A DNA stretch of 50,804 nucleotides, taken from Nitrospirota bacterium. GTDB taxonomy: Bacteria > Nitrospirota > UBA9217. This document shows positions 21,743-49,400 of this stretch, piece by piece. Under the pieces are notes generated by a model. The model was not told the DNA's origin. It did no database searches and worked only from the letters and a program-made list of their open reading frames with translations. How positions within the stretch are numbered: position 1 is the stretch's first letter; each line of letters starts with the position of its first letter. The stretch is taken from assembly GCA_041476485.1 (NCBI GenBank), contig JBGOTO010000002.1, positions 1 through 50,804 of the forward strand, written 5' to 3'. The position numbers were made by a program, and so were the translations under genes.

Positions 21743-22471
21743 TTATGCCGCCTCGTCGCCGCCCGTGAGCCGGAGGAAGATTGGCTCCAGGTGGCTTTCG
21801 GGCATGCTGGCCATGCGGGCGAGGTCCCCGACGCTGCCCTCGGCGATGATCCTGCCCTGGTTGATGATGGCCACACGGGTGCACATCTGCTCCACGATCT
21901 CGAGGGTGTGCGTGGACATGAACACCGTCACGCCTTTGGATGCCAGGTCTTTAAAAATGTCTTTTACGAGACGCGCTCCCCTTGGGTCGAGGCCCACCAT
22001 GGGTTCGTCCACGACGAGCACCCTGGGTCCGTGCAGGAGCGACGATGCCATGACCAGGCGCTGTTTCATGCCGTGGGAGAAGTTCTCTATCAGTTCGTTC
22101 TTCCAGTCCGGGAGGCCGAATTGTTCGAGCAGTTCATTGATACGCCCGGTCGAGTCCTCCATATCGTACAGTGCTGAGACAAAGTGCATGAACTCCACGG
22201 CGGTCAGTTTTTCATACAGGAACGGCCTGTCGGGAATGAACCCGGTGATGAACTTTGCCTTGAGGGGCTCTTTCTGCACGTCGTGGCCGCCGATGAGGAT
22301 GCTGCCCTCCGTCGGCTGGAGCAAACCCGCCATCATCTTGATCGTCGTGGTCTTGCCCGCGCCGTTCGGGCCGAGAAAACCGAAGACCTCTCCCTGCGCC
22401 ACCTCGAGGGTGACGTTGTTCACGGCTTTGAGAGCGCCGTAGTTCTTGGTAAGGTTGATGAGTTTGATCAT
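21743..22471 (-). CDS. ABC transporter ATP-binding protein
   Basis: Walker A GPNGAGKTT, signature-like FSHGMKQRL, Walker B VLVVDEP. Confidence 0.92.
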   Translation of the reverse strand: MIKLINLTKNYGALKAVNNVTLEVAQGEVFGFLGPNGAGKTTTIKMMAGLLQPTEGSILIGGHDVQKEPLKAKFITGFIPDRPFLYEKLTAVEFMHFVSALYDMEDSTGRINELLEQFGLPDWKNELIENFSHGMKQRLVMASSLLHGPRVLVVDEPMVGLDPRGARLVKDIFKDLASKGVTVFMSTHTLEIVEQMCTRVAIINQGRIIAEGSVGDLARMASMPESHLEPIFLRLTGGDEAA

Positions 22472-23919
22472 TTATATTCCAGAACTTCCACTTTCAGCTT
22501 TCCCACCAGCCTCAGAATTTGCGACTGTGTATCGAGATTCCCCGTGGCGAACCGGATATGCGTGGCGTCGGCAGGGAACTGGTTGAACGTGGGATCGATT
22601 GCCATCCATTCTCCGAGCCAGACCTCCGGCCAGGCATGGTAGTAAAACCCGTCTTCCATATACACGATCCCTGCGGCCATGCGCGTGGGGATGCCCGCGG
22701 AGCGGGCCAGGGCCGTATACAGCGCTGTATGTTCGTTACAGTCGCCTTCCCGCTGGTTCAGTACTTCGAGGGCGCTCGGGATGCTTACGACCGCCTTTTT
22801 CGCCAGCGCCGTATAGACCCACTCATTCAGCTTCTTTGCGGCGTCGCGGGCATGGCGTTCACCGGACAGGATCCTTGAAGCCTGGTCGATGATCTTTTTG
22901 TCGTCGCTCTGGATGAGGGCGTTCGGTTGCAGGTATTCATTTTGCTCTTTTCCCGTATAAGGCAGCCGATATGCCGCAGGGTAGTCCTGGGTCCGTACCT
23001 CTAGAGTATCTCCCCGAAGCGATTGTCGATCGCCGTCAAGCTGAAAACCGTTCAGAGAAACGCCTTGCAGCCGGGCCCTCAAGTATTTTACCTGGGAGGG
23101 CTCTTTAATCATCCCGGAAGGGATCCTGGTCAGCGTGATAATGTCGACAACCGGCCCTTCTTTATCGAGTTTTTTTGCTTCCTTCGGACTTTCCTGCAAA
23201 AGCACGTAGCCCAACGGGCTCTCTTCCTTGATCGTCTCTCCATCCTGCGTGATCCATGAGGTTGATTCGAGGCCCTGGAAGGCTTCGTTCAGCTTATAGA
23301 CGGTCTGCTCCTTGTCTCCCACCTTGATGTGTTCGCTCGACACTATCGTGATCGTGGCGTCTTCGGTATTCATGGTGGCGGGGTTGAACAGCGGGAAGCG
23401 ATATTTTTTCCCGGGCTCCAGACCGAGCAGAATAAGCGCGGGCTTGATGTTCGGCGACAGATACGGAGGCTCCTTGAGCGGAATGTGTTCCGCGCGCGTC
23501 TGGCCGCCGGTTTCGATGTCCAGGACCAGTTTTTTTCCGATAACGGCGCCCTTGATCTTCATCGACGTCGGTCCGGACTGCATCGTGAAGTCGAAGTACT
23601 TCAAAAGGAAGTTCTTCGTGGTGTAGCTGTTGATGACCGTTTTTACCCGTTGCACGGAGCCGAGGACCAGGATATCGAGTTCTGATTCTTCGTACAGGTG
23701 GTAGGTCTCCGCCTCGGGCAGGATGCTGGTATGGGCATAGCCGATCTTTCTGCCCTGCTGGTAGATGCCGAACCATTCATCCCCCGCACGGACGCCTTCC
23801 TGGGTGATGACGTCGAGGGCGATGACCGTGGCAGGCCGGAGGTACGTGCGCTCGACGAGGAGGCCGAGCATGACGAACCAGAAAACGAGGATGAGGGTGC
23901 TGATGATTTTGTTGAGCAT
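22468..23919 (-). CDS. Membrane-anchored transglutaminase-like (Cys-His-Asp) protein
   Basis: N-terminal TM helix and core EGDCNEHTALYTALARSAGIPTR...YYHAWPEVWL...WMAIDP. Its stop overlaps the ATPase start (ATGA). Confidence 0.85.
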   Translation of the reverse strand: MLNKIISTLILVFWFVMLGLLVERTYLRPATVIALDVITQEGVRAGDEWFGIYQQGRKIGYAHTSILPEAETYHLYEESELDILVLGSVQRVKTVINSYTTKNFLLKYFDFTMQSGPTSMKIKGAVIGKKLVLDIETGGQTRAEHIPLKEPPYLSPNIKPALILLGLEPGKKYRFPLFNPATMNTEDATITIVSSEHIKVGDKEQTVYKLNEAFQGLESTSWITQDGETIKEESPLGYVLLQESPKEAKKLDKEGPVVDIITLTRIPSGMIKEPSQVKYLRARLQGVSLNGFQLDGDRQSLRGDTLEVRTQDYPAAYRLPYTGKEQNEYLQPNALIQSDDKKIIDQASRILSGERHARDAAKKLNEWVYTALAKKAVVSIPSALEVLNQREGDCNEHTALYTALARSAGIPTRMAAGIVYMEDGFYYHAWPEVWLGEWMAIDPTFNQFPADATHIRFATGNLDTQSQILRLVGKLKVEVLEYK

Positions 23920-45852: not shown

Positions 45853-46015
45853 TTCATGGCCGGAGAACTCCTGTCCCGGTCTGTTATCTCCGGCATTGGA
45901 ACGGGGAAAGAACTATAGGCTTTATCTATGAATCACCGTTGATTTGATAGACAGAAGCAATTTGACTGATTGTCCGTACGAATGGTATTCTAATCACAGC
46001 TGAGAGGTGATGATC

Positions 46016-47068
46016 ATGGCTGAAGGCAAGAACAGCAAAGAGAAAATCAAACTTACTTCATTGTCCCACGGCGCGGGCTGAGCCTGCAAGCTCGGTCCAA
46101 AGGTATTGGACCAGATACTCAAGTCGTTGCCCGCGGTCGTCGATCCCCGCGTGCTCGCGGGGACCGAGGACGACGCCGGCGTCTACCAGATTGCCGACGA
46201 CCTTGCCCTGGTCCAGACCGTGGACTTCTTCACGCCCATCGTCGACGATCCCTATGACTTCGGCTCCATCGCCGCGGCGAATGCGCTGTCCGATATTTAC
46301 GCCATGGGTGCCAGGCCGCTCACGGCGCTGAACCTTGTGGCCTATCCGAAGGACGGCCCTCTGGAGGTATTGGCAGAGATCATGCGCGGCGGGGCGGAAA
46401 AGGCTCAGGAAGCCGGGGTGAGCATCATCGGCGGCCACTCGATCGACGACAAAGAGCCGAAGTACGGCATGGCCGTGACCGGCACGGTGCATCCCGACAA
46501 GATCGTCCCGAAGGGCGGCGCCAAGGCCGGGGACCGGCTCGTTTTGACCAAGCCGCTCGGCACGGGCATCATTTCTACCGCAATCAAGGTCGGGCGGGCG
46601 TCGGAGGAAATAATCGCGACGGCGACCAGGCACATGAAGACCCTGAACAAGCTTGCGGCAGAAGCCATGCTCGAAGCAGGGGCCAAGGGCGCGACGGACG
46701 TCACCGGGTTCGGCCTGCTCGGCCATTTGCACGAAATGCTTCATCGAAGCTGCGCCGACGCCCGCATACTCCTGTCGAACGTGCCCGTTCTTCCTGGCGT
46801 CCGTGATTTGGTAAAGCTGAGCGTCCCCGGCGGCACTCGCGCGAACCTCGCGTACGTGGGCGAAAAGGTCGAGTGGGCATCGGGCATCACTGAGGATGAA
46901 AAATTGATTCTCGCCGACGCCCAGACCTCGGGAGGGCTCTTGATCGCCGTTTCTCCGGCCAAGCTCGATGTGCTGCTTGCCGGGCTTGCCAAGCGGGGCG
47001 TGGAGACCAGGGCGGTGATCGGAGAAGTCATCGAGGGAGAAGCGGGAATGATCTTCGTCGAGAAATGA
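46016..47068 (+). CDS. selD: Selenide, water dikinase (selenophosphate synthetase), Sec-containing (TGA at 46079-46081 read as Sec)
   Basis: Reading from ATG 46016 (GAGAGG RBS) through the TGA gives MAEGKNSKEKIKLTSLSHGAG-U-ACKLGPKVLDQIL. This aligns with E. coli [23 protein letters not shown], with Sec at the Cys17 position. The remainder is the track ORF 46106-47068. Confidence 0.9.
46094..46112 (+). promoter_or_regulatory. Bacterial SECIS-like hairpin downstream of the selD UGA
   Basis: GGTCCAA-AGGTA-TTGGACC has a 7-bp stem and a GGU-containing apical loop. It starts 12 nt after the UGA codon. Confidence 0.65.
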
Positions 47069-47124
47069 TAATAAAATCCTGACTTCCTGCGAATTCATCA
47101 ATAAAGTGCAAAGGAGAGTTGCGT

Positions 47125-48141
47125 ATGCGTTTCGGAAGGATTGTGTTGCTCGTTGCGTTGTTCTGCTGCCTCGTAGGGGCGGCGCCGTTGTTTGCCAAGG
47201 AACGGAAGGGCCAGATAACGATTAAAGTGGACCTGAAATCTCCTGTTGACGCCAAAGACGTGAAGCTCTGGATTCCCTATCCCGTGTCAGACGGGAACCA
47301 GGACATAACGGATGTCGCGATCAAGGGAAACTACTCGCAGGCAGGCGTGTACCGGGAACCGAAATCCGGCAACTCCGTGCTCTATGCGGAGTGGAAAGGG
47401 CCCACACGGGAGAGGAAGCTTGTTTACACGTTCCAGGTCACGAGGAGGGAGCAGGTAACCACGGAGTTCCCGGAGAAGGAGCTCGCATTTTCGCCGGGAG
47501 AGTTCAAACCCTATCTTGAAGAATCTCCGTCGCTGCCACTCACCCCGAAGATCAGGGAGCGGGCTCTTGCCGTTACCAAAGGGAAAAAGACCGTGCTCGC
47601 GCGGGCGCGCGCGCTGTACGACTGGATCGTGGAAAACATGTATCGCGACCCGAACGTGAAAGGGTGCGGGCTCGGCGAAGTGGAGCGGCTGCTCGAAACC
47701 GGCGGCGGCAAGTGCGCGGACATCCATTCTGTTTTCGTCGCCCTTGCCCGGGCAACGGGAATCCCGGCGCGGGAGGCCTTCGGCATCCGGATGCCGAAAG
47801 GCAGGGAAGGGGACATGACGAAATCGCAGCACTGCTGGGCGGAGTTCTATCTGCCGGGGAAGGGCTGGGTGGTCGTGGACCCCGCGGACGTGCGGAAGTA
47901 CATTCTTGAGCAGCAGTGCGACCTGGCGAAGGCGAAGCCCGTCCGCGAATATTACTTCGGAACGGTGGATGAGAGCCGGATCGCGTTCGGGACTGGGCGG
48001 GACATTATCCTGAACCCGCCTCAGAGCGGAGGGCCCCTGAACTATTTCATGTACCCCTACGCCGAGGCGGACGGCAAACCGATCAATGAAGACCTGTACG
48101 GGTTCAATATCGGGTACAAGATCAGCTTCAAAGAATTGTAA
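47125..48141 (+). CDS. Secreted transglutaminase-like protein
   Basis: Signal peptide MRFGRIVLLVALFCCLVGAAPLFA and core GGGKCADIHSVFVALARATGIPAR...QHCWAEFYLPGKGWVVVDPAD. GGAG lies 8 nt upstream of ATG 47125. Confidence 0.85.
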   Translation: MRFGRIVLLVALFCCLVGAAPLFAKERKGQITIKVDLKSPVDAKDVKLWIPYPVSDGNQDITDVAIKGNYSQAGVYREPKSGNSVLYAEWKGPTRERKLVYTFQVTRREQVTTEFPEKELAFSPGEFKPYLEESPSLPLTPKIRERALAVTKGKKTVLARARALYDWIVENMYRDPNVKGCGLGEVERLLETGGGKCADIHSVFVALARATGIPAREAFGIRMPKGREGDMTKSQHCWAEFYLPGKGWVVVDPADVRKYILEQQCDLAKAKPVREYYFGTVDESRIAFGTGRDIILNPPQSGGPLNYFMYPYAEADGKPINEDLYGFNIGYKISFKEL

Positions 48142-48143
48142 GT

Positions 48144-48240
48144 GAGGGACATGGAGCTGGGCTCCTCCTGGTCTGCAAAACCAGCGACACGTCACGGATT
48201 CTTCCGGTGTGGTGGGTTCGATTCCCACTGCCCCTCTCCA
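48144..48240 (+). tRNA. Non-canonical tRNA, anticodon GCA (Cys), 8-bp acceptor stem, long variable arm, U73, encoded CCA (tRNASec-shaped tRNACys)
   Basis: Manual fold. Acceptor GAGGGACA/TGCCCCTC (one A.C mismatch). D arm GGAGC-tgg-GCTCC. Anticodon arm CTGGT-CTGCAAA-ACCAG. About 27-nt variable arm. T arm GTGGG-TTCGATT-CCCAC directly abuts the 8-nt acceptor 3' strand. Then T and CCA. Confidence 0.7.
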
Positions 48241-48325
48241 GAATAACTTTCTGAAAAGAATTTTTCTCGCTAAGCGCGCAAAGGACGCAAGGGGAACCTT
48301 GAGTCAAAATCCTTTCTGGTTTTAC

Positions 48326-49078
48326 TTACAGGTCTTTGGCGGTTTTCTGCTTGAGTTTTTTGTTTTGATGGTTGGACGGGTTGTCCGTGAGCATGAGCAC
48401 CCCATCCTCGCCGTGGCCGATGTAGATGGTGTAGCGGGGAGTGAACGTGGTGCCCTTCCCGTTATAGATCGAGAGGATTCTCTTCACATACTGCTGCGTT
48501 TCCCTGATCGGCGGCACTGTGCCCCAGCGCTTTACCGTGGTTTCTCCGGAATTGTACGCCGCGAGCGCGAGCGAAAGGTTCCCTTCATACCGGTCCATGA
48601 GGTACCGGAGGTAGCGCACGCCGCCGGCGATGTTTTCGTGCGGGTTGAAGGAGTTCTTGACGTTCATCTCCACGGCCGTCTGCGGCATGAGCTGCATCAG
48701 CCCCATGGCACCCTTCCGGGAGAGGGCATAGGGGTTGAAATCGGATTCCACCTTGATGATCGCGCGCACCAGGGCCGGATCCACGCCGTGCCGGTCGCAG
48801 GCGGCGCTGATGCTGTCCAGGTAGGCGCTCGGCATGTTCGAAGATGCTGTCTGCGTCGCCCCGCGGGGAGTTTGCGAAGAAGACCCGGTTGATTGTTTTT
48901 CCTTCGGTTCCGGCTTGACCTTATATTTTTTGCTGCTGCCGACGCCGACGTTGCTGAAATGGACCACGCCGTTTTCGTCCGTGTACTGATAGATGTCGGC
49001 TGCGACGCGGCTCGGCTGGAGGGATAAGGACAGGAAAGCGGCAATTGTCAGAACTAACGTTTTTTCTCGTTTTGTCAA
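48326..49078 (-). CDS. Lytic transglycosylase (SLT domain) with N-terminal DUF4124-like module
   Basis: VESDFNPYALSRKGAMGLMQLMP and AAYNSGE motifs. A likely TTG start at 49078 follows GAGG. The track ATG at 49135 is the alternative. Confidence 0.85.
   Translation of the reverse strand: MTKREKTLVLTIAAFLSLSLQPSRVAADIYQYTDENGVVHFSNVGVGSSKKYKVKPEPKEKQSTGSSSQTPRGATQTASSNMPSAYLDSISAACDRHGVDPALVRAIIKVESDFNPYALSRKGAMGLMQLMPQTAVEMNVKNSFNPHENIAGGVRYLRYLMDRYEGNLSLALAAYNSGETTVKRWGTVPPIRETQQYVKRILSIYNGKGTTFTPRYTIYIGHGEDGVLMLTDNPSNHQNKKLKQKTAKDL

Positions 49079-49323: not shown

Positions 49324-49400
<77 letters not shown>

Follow-up and report, generated by a model that had tools for sequence, protein, structure and literature searches.

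The tRNA gene described here (48144 to 48240, forward strand) was found in a window, meaning the whole stretch of 50,804 nucleotides of Nitrospirota DNA that was analysed, downstream of selD and a transglutaminase-like gene on the same strand. The selD gene encodes selenophosphate synthetase and spans about 46010 to 47068, as judged from its translation and its AIRS and AIRS_C domains (Pfam). It has an in-frame TGA as its selenocysteine (Sec) codon at 46079 to 46081, which is residue 24 from the ATG at 46010 and falls in the motif SHGAG-U-ACKLG. A SECIS-like hairpin, GGUCCAA-AGGUA-UUGGACC (46094 to 46112, forward strand), starts 15 nt past this UGA, and an equivalent hairpin past the UGA is present in the SelD genes of the related loci L001, L068, L085, L127, L140 and L207. 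The transglutaminase-like gene (47119 to 48141; Pfam: Transglut_core) ends in a TAA that lies 2 nt before the tRNA. An earlier sequence-only reading of this DNA had already noted both the 2-nt gap and a Sec-containing selD 1.1 kb upstream, and the distance from the end of selD to the start of the tRNA is indeed 1.07 kb.

The transglutaminase-like gene and the tRNA are probably co-transcribed. No promoter-like site was found between these two genes, and the candidate promoter for a transcript of selD, the transglutaminase-like gene and the tRNA lies upstream of selD (45962 to 45991, forward strand). About 100 nt past the tRNA there is a weak terminator-like hairpin with a T-run (48338 to 48361, forward strand); both of these signals were picked out by consensus match only. 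Further downstream follows a lytic transglycosylase gene on the opposite strand. Within the 50.8-kb window no selA, selB, selC or cysS was found. There is also no yedF after the tRNA, unlike at L001 and many other loci of the same family, and relative to L001 the downstream yedF has been lost.

The tRNA is 97 nt long. Its acceptor stem consists of the 5' strand GAGGGACA (48144 to 48151) and the 3' strand UGCCCCUC (48229 to 48236), the latter being the 8 nt from the T stem to the discriminator; GAGGGACA against TGCCCCTC gives 8 bp with the single mismatch A6·C67. The D arm GGAGC-UGG-GCUCC (48153 to 48165) has 5 bp and a 3-nt loop. The anticodon arm CUGGU-CUGCAAA-ACCAG (48168 to 48184) holds its loop at 48173 to 48179 and the anticodon GCA at 48175 to 48177. 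The variable arm of 27 nt (48185 to 48211) folds into a bulged hairpin, and the T arm GUGGG-UUCGAUU-CCCAC (48212 to 48228) has 5 bp. The discriminator is U73 (48237), followed by an encoded CCA (48238 to 48240). The stems, loops, U73 and CCA thus lie where the sequence-only reading had put them.

ARAGORN and covariance models, two of the checks which that reading had proposed, both detect the gene. ARAGORN calls a tRNA-Cys(gca) of 97 nt with the boundaries exactly at 48144 and 48240. The best match within the Rfam clan is tRNA-Sec (Rfam: RF01852), over the full length, with an E-value of 2.1e-6 and 47.0 bits, which is exactly the gathering score of that model. The earlier warning that the gene might be mislabelled was fair, because Rfam labels it tRNA-Sec and ARAGORN labels it tRNA-Cys.

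We compared this fold with the other tRNA architectures that could apply. A canonical class I tRNACys has a 7/5 branch, a variable loop of 4-5 nt and about 74-76 nt in total, which does not agree with 97 nt and a 27-nt variable arm. The identity of a canonical tRNASec (selC) is rejected as well, since the tRNA has GCA and U73 and not UCA and G73. A 7/5 or 8/4 fold is rejected by the 8 nt that follow a T stem capable of 5 bp and by the collapse of the slid-partner controls, and in a 7/5 fold U65 would sit unpaired between both stems. Allo-tRNAs have a 12-bp branch (8/4 or 9/3), while the T stem GUGGG/CCCAC pairs over 5 bp and gives an 8/5 branch of 13 bp. The choice of 5 bp over 4 bp in the T stem reflects pairing potential and not covariation, because the T stem is invariant.

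Related tRNAs in Nitrospirota

About 150 homologues were recovered, nearly all of them from Nitrospirota/Thermodesulfovibrionia. A cultured organism among the carriers is Thermodesulfovibrio sp. N1, with a family member at L108. They come from a scan of a genome collection, which gave 120 matches, and from 98 metagenome loci, for which the search pattern left the anticodon unspecified. About 45 of the 120 genome-scan matches lay outside the family, and roughly a dozen were further members that ARAGORN had missed. The matches in Planctomycetota and Methanosarcina look like conserved coding sequence and were not counted as family tRNAs, and a few other matches are unrelated. Cloacimonadota have a separate type of tRNA(GCA) with G73, outside this family.

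The identity elements are strongly conserved. Among the 98 metagenome loci, essentially all complete members have GCA although the pattern was independent of the anticodon. Of the 66 candidates of the genome set with the T stem of the family, 62 have U73 followed by CCA, as do all 60 aligned sequences. The outer G-C pair of the T stem is found in 57 of these 60.

The 13-bp branch proposed by the sequence-only reading is supported by covariation in the 60 aligned homologues. With the 8/5 cloverleaf, 90.6% of the cells are paired, compared with 84.7% in shuffles (0 of 500), and slid controls gave 49-62%. Double-sided changes occur at 19 pairs, and compensatory changes are seen at 7 of the 8 pairs of the acceptor stem. 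The remaining one, the 8th, is A-U in 57 of the 60 members and G-C in L024, a Firmicute. In the window tRNA the third pair of the D stem is A-U instead of the G-C of the family, so this change is compensated. The variable region forms a hairpin of 5-11 bp in every member, although the sequences are unrelated, and it folds with a mean of -7.0 kcal/mol compared with -3.0 kcal/mol for shuffles. With about 150 homologues and these compensatory changes, the window tRNA is far beyond chance.

Rfam tRNA-Sec gives 50-67 bits for each of the 15 Nitrospirota members tested and for the Firmicute L024; with its 47.0 bits the window tRNA scores lowest among the members seen. Both ARAGORN and Rfam miss members whose variable arm is very long, such as L001; these were found with BLAST and pattern matching. 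In some relatives, among them L138, L140, L191 and L001, the variable arm is branched and reaches 50-95 nt, with a conserved small hairpin. Some genomes of the family have two copies of the tRNA.

In the relatives L141 and L179 the tRNA is identical at 96 of 97 positions, compared with 90.8% identity in the adjacent coding DNA and 76% in the spacer (P ~0.001), which indicates purifying selection.

Selenium genes around the family

The family tRNAs vary in location, and they are found with selenium genes instead of in tRNA or rRNA clusters. YedF/TusA is encoded downstream of the tRNA at 20 loci. A full-length SelB gene lies directly downstream on the same strand at six distinct loci; the seventh entry repeats one of these genes, which has a second tRNA copy beside it, and the eighth member of the SelB cluster is a distant GTPase. 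Genes for SelD, a rhodanese and a class-V aminotransferase recur nearby. The UGA is present in five neighbouring SelD genes whose N-terminus is readable, and in three more from a wider scan. The transglutaminase-like gene is near the tRNA at 11 loci, mostly directly upstream. Synteny followed through homologues of the transglutaminase-like gene was useful only for L001 and L002, and at the distant loci L003-L007 (Dissulfurispira and others) no tRNA follows the gene.

The contig L211 carries both a family tRNA and, 4 kb away, a canonical tRNA-Sec (UCA, G73). Because both coexist there, the family tRNA comes in addition to selC. The MAG VGWY01 has two tRNA-SelB loci with 72% identity to each other, which we looked at as a test for a second SelB copy of the SelB* type; the bin is possibly mixed. 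No canonical short 7/5 tRNA-Cys was seen on the Nitrospirota loci fetched, which are small genome slices of 1.5 Mb in total.

Proposed function and alternatives

A rare class of tRNAs, called selC* tRNACys or tRNAReC, was described in 2017-2018. These tRNAs have a tRNASec-like shape, U73 and the anticodon GCA or UCA, occur among others in Thermodesulfovibrio of the Nitrospirae together with a full set of sel genes, and are described as an extra or minor tRNACys of genomes whose Sec machinery is complete (Mukai et al. 2017, Nucleic Acids Res 45:2776; PMC5389517). For the tRNACys(GCA) of Desulfotomaculum nigrificans it is reported that UGA is read as Cys, that the tRNA does not interact with EF-Tu and that it is delivered by SelB (PMC11415595, citing Vargas-Rodriguez et al. 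2018, RNA Biol 15:471), and both anticodon types recode UGA given a SECIS (PMC13582414, citing Vargas-Rodriguez 2018). Reading of UGA by GCA needs a G34·A mismatch, for which the precedent in these sources is the cited E. coli experiments only. The sequence-only reading had called the function of such tRNAs unresolved, which holds for the physiological role but not for CysRS charging, lack of EF-Tu binding, SelB delivery and UGA-to-Cys recoding, all reported in other phyla. It had also placed Sec-mimicking cysteine tRNAs in deltaproteobacteria, to which the class is not confined, since the published members already include the lineage of the window.

The evidence supports assigning the window gene to this class on its sequence features. 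It has the 8-bp acceptor stem, the long variable arm, a length of at least 80 nt, U73 and GCA by which selC* genes are recognised. As for the Sec machinery, the window has a Sec-type selD but no selA, selB or selC; in relatives selB adjoins the tRNA, and selC is present on L211. The window tRNA does not have the features of the selB*/cysS* operon subtype of Desulfobacterales and Syntrophobacterales. The proposal of the sequence-only reading, a Sec-shaped tRNA with Cys identity that works with SelB and the Sec machinery, agrees with the published class and with the linkage to selB, Sec-type selD and yedF.

We consider it likely that the gene encodes an extra cysteine tRNA of the selC* type (tRNAReC) which acts as follows. 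The tRNA would be transcribed together with selD and the transglutaminase-like gene, probably, and then released by RNase P and 3' processing. The ordinary CysRS would charge it with Cys through U73 and GCA, both of which are in the sequence and are the two strongest CysRS determinants (PMC5389517). The 13-bp branch and the long variable arm would prevent its binding by EF-Tu and instead allow recognition by SelB. Bound to a SECIS hairpin, SelB would then bring the Cys-tRNA to the UGA of a selenoprotein gene, where Cys would be inserted in place of Sec. CysRS charging and properties of the SelB route are reported in these sources for members from D. nigrificans and D. biacutus only (PMC11415595; PMC5389517), so that for Nitrospirota members both steps are carried over from work on Clostridia and deltaproteobacteria. 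The most plausible use, in our view, is that selenoprotein genes could still be translated under a shortage of Sec-tRNASec. The selD next to the tRNA would be the obvious case, because selD needs its own product, selenophosphate, to become a selenoprotein.

It is improbable, though the best of the alternatives, that the window copy is decaying or has a role outside translation, for example as an element that directs RNase P processing or stabilises the 3' end of the selD-transglutaminase transcript or as a regulatory RNA. The lowest Rfam score of the family and the A6·C67 mismatch, which is uncompensated, would fit decay, as would the second A·C mismatch of the closest relatives and the loss of yedF relative to L001. 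The start of the tRNA 2 nt past a stop codon with no promoter-like site of its own would suit a transcript-end signal, and some functional drift in the family is suggested by relatives that have C33 or a branched variable arm of 50-95 nt. However, no defect is seen in the T loop, the D-loop GG, the anticodon loop, U73 or CCA, the D-stem change of this lineage is compensated, and single A·C or U·U mismatches also occur in otherwise conserved members. The conservation of 96 of 97 positions, compared with about 91% in the flanking DNA of a relative, also argues against decay.

Very unlikely is a tRNA of the tRNASec type with a Cys anticodon, charged by SerRS and converted by SelA to give Sec (or left with Ser) at selected UGC/UGU codons. 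Such a tRNA would explain the tRNASec shape with its long variable arm, the main SerRS determinant, and the Rfam class. In allo-tRNAs, a long variable arm combined with G73 or U73 can be a sign that the tRNA accepts serine (PMC5389517), and recoding of UGC by a tRNASec(GCA) is known from Aeromonas salmonicida (PMC11415595). Nevertheless, essentially all of the about 150 members have U73, while the canonical tRNASec of L211 has G73; the pair U73 and GCA points to CysRS as stated above, and the characterised GCA/U73 homologue carries Cys (PMC11415595).

Least probable is an ordinary, possibly sole, elongator tRNACys with an unusual class-II-like body that EF-Tu would bring to all UGC/UGU codons: the full CysRS identity (GCA, U73), the encoded CCA, the wide and conserved occurrence in Nitrospirota and the lack of a canonical short tRNA-Cys on the 1.5 Mb of small slices are all compatible with it, but the 13-bp branch is tRNASec architecture, the clostridial homologue reportedly shows no EF-Tu interaction (PMC11415595), Mukai et al. 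call the class additional or minor, the variable location follows selenium genes, some genomes have two copies, and members with C33, with mismatches in the acceptor stem or with up to 95 nt inserted in the variable arm are hard to square with an essential housekeeping tRNA.

Returning to the selC*-type reading, a wider version of it is speculative and rather doubtful. According to this version, the Nitrospirota tRNAs are a fixed part of a conserved neighbourhood for selenium and sulfur trafficking (LysR / TGase-like - tRNA - YedF(TusA) - rhodanese - HGD-D/BcrAD - SelB/SelD), and in several lineages the variable arm has been elaborated into a branched domain of 50-95 nt. If true, the tRNA would be expected to have a further partner or to act in part outside translation, for example in sensing the selenium status or in recruiting a protein that transfers selenium or sulfur. 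As far as checked, no description of this for the class was found in the literature.

The class, its identity elements and the SelB-dependent mechanism are already published. What is added here is the correct call of this gene and a much larger Nitrospirota family with a consistent linkage to selenium genes, which may guide work on the physiological role. The tRNA probably marks this uncultured Nitrospirota genome as able to read Sec UGA codons as Cys. This would be a natural codon ambiguity beside a Sec-dependent SelD gene, whose synthesis poses a bootstrap problem. For annotation it means that UGA genes such as the adjacent selD may give Cys or Sec proteins depending on the selenium supply, and that the gene should not be labelled tRNA-Sec, as Rfam does.

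Comparison with known tRNA classes

Canonical tRNASec (Rfam: RF01852) shares with the window tRNA the 13-bp 8/5 branch, a D loop of 3-4 nt, the long variable arm and the GGUUCGAUUCC T loop. It differs in G73 and UCA and in being charged by SerRS with subsequent conversion by SelA. The canonical selC on L211, GGGAGAGG.../...CCTCTCCC-G-CCA with UCA, is a gene clearly separate from the family tRNA of the same contig.

The tRNASec(GCA) of A. salmonicida also combines GCA with a tRNASec body (Mukai 2016 via PMC11415595). Its recoding is the opposite one, as it has Ser/Sec identity and gives Sec at UGC, while U73 gives the window tRNA Cys identity. Allo-tRNAs are found by the same searches with tRNASec models and share the long variable arm and the lengthened acceptor stem (Mukai et al. 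2017). They have 12-bp branches (8/4 or 9/3), diverse anticodons and mostly Ser identity, in contrast to 8/5, GCA and U73.

Closer still are the described tRNACys of the selC* type. The deltaproteobacterial members have an 8/4 branch with a bulged A51a, often UCA, A1:U72 and a dedicated CysRS* (PMC5389517), whereas the window tRNA has an 8/5 branch with no bulge, G1:C72 and GCA, and no selB*/cysS* nearby. The tRNAReC of D. nigrificans shares GCA, U73 and the tRNASec-like structure (PMC11415595; PMC13582414). It belongs to another phylum, and its biochemistry is demonstrated while that of the window tRNA is inferred. The Firmicute member of the family, L024 from Desulfitispora, aligns with the window tRNA with the same 8/5 plan and T arm. 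The selC* tRNACys of PMC5389517 as a class share the 8-bp acceptor stem, long variable arm, U73 and GCA with the window tRNA, and are described there from anaerobes with Sec machinery, Thermodesulfovibrio of the Nitrospirae included, with selB downstream at some loci.

The window tRNA and its neighbourhood

ARAGORN annotates a 97-nt tRNA-Cys(gca) at 48144-48240 on the forward strand, the exact position at which a sequence-only reading had described a Sec-shaped tRNA with Cys identity, and on inspection all elements of that description are present. The acceptor stem (GAGGGACA/UGCCCCUC) has 8 bp with a single A6·C67 mismatch and is separated by a 1-nt linker from the D arm (GGAGC-UGG-GCUCC). The anticodon arm is CUGGU-CUGCAAA-ACCAG, the variable region has 27 nt, the T arm is GUGGG-UUCGAUU-CCCAC, and the 3' end consists of the discriminator U73 and an encoded CCA. 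The clan-resolved best match in Rfam is tRNA-Sec (RF01852), full length and with 47.0 bits equal to the gathering score (E=2.1e-6). The single-sequence MFE fold gives the identical cloverleaf with a bulged variable-arm hairpin.

Two further observations of that reading, the Sec-containing selD upstream and the 2 nt between the stop codon of the transglutaminase-like gene (TGase, 47119-48141) and the tRNA start, were borne out. The selD gene is 1.07 kb away, with the in-frame TGA Sec codon at 46079-46081 in the catalytic motif SHGAG-U-ACKLG. Beginning 15 nt past the UGA, a predicted 7-bp SECIS-like hairpin (46094-46112) has the position and form expected for a bacterial SECIS, and other SelD genes carry an equivalent hairpin 3' of their UGA. 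Consensus matches gave a promoter-like site upstream of selD and a weak terminator-like hairpin 3' of the tRNA, and no promoter-like site was found between the TGase gene and the tRNA. On these matches alone a single selD-TGase-tRNA transcript is plausible.

Downstream of the tRNA there are a lytic transglycosylase gene (SLT) on the minus strand, a tRNA-Met(CAT) at 49324-49400 (ARAGORN) and a UDG/Mug-family glycosylase gene. The rest of the 50.8-kb window is chromosomal housekeeping (MgtE, Nramp, QueC, LptF/G, SMC, Kup, NadA, RecO, Lnt, RibD and MarC); selA, selB, selC, cysS and yedF were not found within it. Homologues of the TGase-like protein carry the names Thermodesulfovibrionales, Nitrospirae and Dissulfurispira, which assigns the window to Nitrospirota. 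A second, distant Transglut_core paralogue is present in the window at 22468-23919 on the minus strand. In five loci from more distant Thermodesulfovibrionia (L003-L007) the genes after the TGase-like one encode YdjY, TusA, rhodanese, a glycosyltransferase and a methyltransferase/radical-SAM (DUF3641) protein, and this set may be a sulfur/selenium-modification cluster.

Homologues and their common structure

We scanned species-representative genomes with a pattern of T loop, 20-50-nt gap and GCA anticodon loop, which matched at least 120 loci. From the matches listed, 60 non-redundant sequences including the window's own were aligned; all share the T arm seen in the window and have an acceptor stem of 8 bp, with U73 and CCA at the 3' end. 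Among the matches listed, 58 of the 59 homologues come from Nitrospirota/Thermodesulfovibrionia MAGs or isolates, including Thermodesulfovibrio sp. N1, and the single exception is the Firmicute Desulfitispora alkaliphila. Since this pattern forced GCA, metagenomes were scanned with T arm, 3' acceptor strand, U73 and CCA, leaving the anticodon unspecified. This gave 98 loci with GCA in essentially all complete members, none of which has UCA.

RNAalifold on the 60 sequences recovered the acceptor stem including A8-U65, as well as the D, anticodon and T stems. Counting pairs of the 8/5 cloverleaf plus variable-arm stem, 90.6% of cells are paired, compared to 84.7% after shuffling of columns (none of 500 shuffles as high) and 49-62% when the 3' partners are slid by 1-3 columns. 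Double-sided changes occur at 19 pairs. Compensatory change was found at seven of the eight pairs in the acceptor stem; the eighth pair is A-U in 57 of 60 sequences and G-C in the Firmicute member. The T stem is invariant, in part forced by the search pattern, so its length of 5 bp versus 4 bp depends on pairing potential alone. Every variable region folds into a 5-11-bp hairpin although the sequences are unrelated (mean -7.0 kcal/mol, against -3.0 for shuffles). Rfam tRNA-Sec matched all 15 tested Nitrospirota members and the Firmicute (L024) with 50-67 bits. The A6·C67 mismatch and a short D loop give the window copy the lowest score (47.0 bits); the A-U pair in the D stem of this copy is a compensated change relative to the family G-C.

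In about 15 Nitrospirota members the variable arm has 47-95 nt and the whole tRNA 118-166 nt (positions as matched in the metagenome scan): L001 (4847-4989), L138, L140, L191, L129, L146, L218, L150, L157, L170, L181, L173, L185 and L209. The arm retains its base stem, and the inserted sequence forms a branched fold, with a variable first hairpin, which in some members has the motif AGCUCUUUCAG, followed by a small conserved second one, e.g. UUCCCUUAGAAGGAG. The longest-armed members are missed by ARAGORN and Rfam. L001, the closest syntenic relative beyond the window's sub-lineage, combines the long arm with a U55-to-C change in the T loop. Four members (L144, which is L211 1632-1728, L194, L206 and L131) have C33 instead of the near-universal U33, with the anticodon loop CCGCAAA; in L131 a loop reads AAUGCAAAU.

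Cloacimonadota genomes encode another type of GCA-anticodon tRNA with a long variable arm (L012, L016, L027, L028, L031, L034, L065, L077, L095, L097, L111, L116, L119 and L121). Its 3' end is always [A/G]-G-CCA, hence the discriminator is G73 and not U73; there is a mismatch at 1:72, and a T stem of 6 bp is possible. The two tested, L016 and L031, match Rfam tRNA-Sec with 53-59 bits. By its sequence this type is a candidate for Ser/Sec-type identity with a Cys anticodon, that is tRNASec(GCA) or allo-tRNA-like, not selC*. Other pattern matches resemble conserved coding sequence and not tRNA, a caution when hunting tRNAs by pattern. These are L039, L040, L045, L059, L073, L076, L105, L112 and L125, mostly Planctomycetota and near-identical over the stretch in nine of nine loci, and L023, L043, L052, L054, L056 and L092 from Methanosarcina.

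Selection and selenium-gene linkage

Two metagenome contigs of one relative (L141 and L179) have the TGase-tRNA-SLT order of the window. The tRNA agrees with the window copy at 96/97 positions, and identity is 90.8% across the TGase coding sequence, 76% for the spacer and 95% for SLT (binomial P about 0.001), which indicates purifying selection on the tRNA. This conservation and the intact functional motifs speak against the reading that the tRNA-like element of this genome is in decay or serves outside translation, which we consider improbable. On its side, the sole tRNA difference in the relative creates a second acceptor-stem A·C mismatch (GAGAGACA/UGCCCCUC), and a YedF/TusA gene of ~600 bp, located between tRNA and SLT in the next-closest locus L001, has been lost from the window, L141 and L179 (window 48241-48326 compared with L001 4990-5623). 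About 20 other loci also have this gene downstream of the tRNA. Some erosion is thus possible, and the window's sub-lineage may have partially lost the function. Between the window and L141/L179, a segment of ~58 nt (window 48265-48322) has the opposite orientation.

ORFs around the family tRNAs from the homologue searches were clustered and annotated with Pfam. A YedF/TusA-domain protein is found downstream in 20 loci, a LysR regulator upstream in 17, a TGase-like gene nearby in 11, usually directly upstream, and HGD-D/BcrAD pairs nearby in 10. Full-length SelB (GTP_EFTU, SelB beta-barrel and winged-helix domains) is immediately downstream on the same strand in six distinct loci (eight entries less one distant GTPase and one repeat of the same L104 gene). 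SelD, rhodanese and class-V aminotransferase are recurrent neighbours. Of the neighbouring SelD genes, five whose N-terminus could be read have an in-frame UGA, and a wider motif scan added three. The family tRNA therefore resides among selenium-handling genes. It is also distinct from selC: on the metagenome contig L211 (1632-5879) the order is family tRNA, rhodanese, HGD-D, BcrAD, YedF/TusA and, 4 kb downstream of the family tRNA, a canonical tRNA-Sec (UCA anticodon, G73, 8 bp in the acceptor stem), so that both genes coexist. The region resembles a compact selenium-related cluster with a Sec-shaped tRNA at each end.

Two family-tRNA copies are found in MAG VGWY01 (L009, L015), in L104 (1767-1857 and 6769-6859) and in MAG JBAZZX01 (L013, L102). 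In VGWY01 each copy is followed by SelB, the two proteins being 72% identical; these could be SelB paralogues or reflect a mixed bin.

Proposed function and the selC* tRNACys class

Beyond the architecture, identity elements, selection, selenium-gene linkage and, in a relative, coexistence with selC observed here, homologues in other phyla make it probable that the window tRNA inserts Cys at UGA+SECIS sites. It would be charged with Cys by CysRS, excluded from EF-Tu and carried by SelB. A plausible use would be to buffer the synthesis of selenoproteins when selenium is limiting, above all that of the adjacent Sec-type SelD. A tRNASec(GCA) of the SerRS/SelA type is quite unlikely given U73 in essentially all family members, and a housekeeping tRNACys is, on searches that covered the window and the homologous loci, about as unlikely. 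Beside the proposed Cys insertion we see a small chance that the Nitrospirota tRNA is integral to a conserved Se/S-trafficking neighbourhood and that the branched variable-arm domain, gained in several lineages, points to an extra partner or role.

Mukai et al. 2017 (PMC5389517) define selC* tRNACys as tRNASec-like with U73 and a GCA or UCA anticodon. They describe it from Clostridia, Bacilli, Thermodesulfobacteria, Thermodesulfovibrio, deltaproteobacteria and Nitrospirae-like contigs, always alongside Sec machinery and in some with downstream selB* (and cysS*), and report Cys insertion at UGA in an E. coli selD reporter. The tRNACys(GCA) of D. nigrificans is reported to read UGA as Cys, delivered by SelB without EF-Tu interaction, and the class was named tRNAReC (Vargas-Rodriguez et al. 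2018, as cited in PMC11415595 and PMC13582414). The best-characterised deltaproteobacterial selC* subtype is described as 8/4 with a bulge, UCA, A1:U72 and a selB*-cysS* operon, whereas the window tRNA has no adjacent selB and is 8/5 with GCA and G1:C72. A 2026 paper applies a routine annotation rule of at least 80 nt, UCA/GCA anticodon and U73 (PMC13582414), and the window tRNA has every sequence feature of selC*/tRNAReC (shape, at least 80 nt, GCA, U73). The call is rare and useful for annotation and will not surprise a specialist: the class is already known and reported for the Nitrospirota phylum, and the window locus is a further member.
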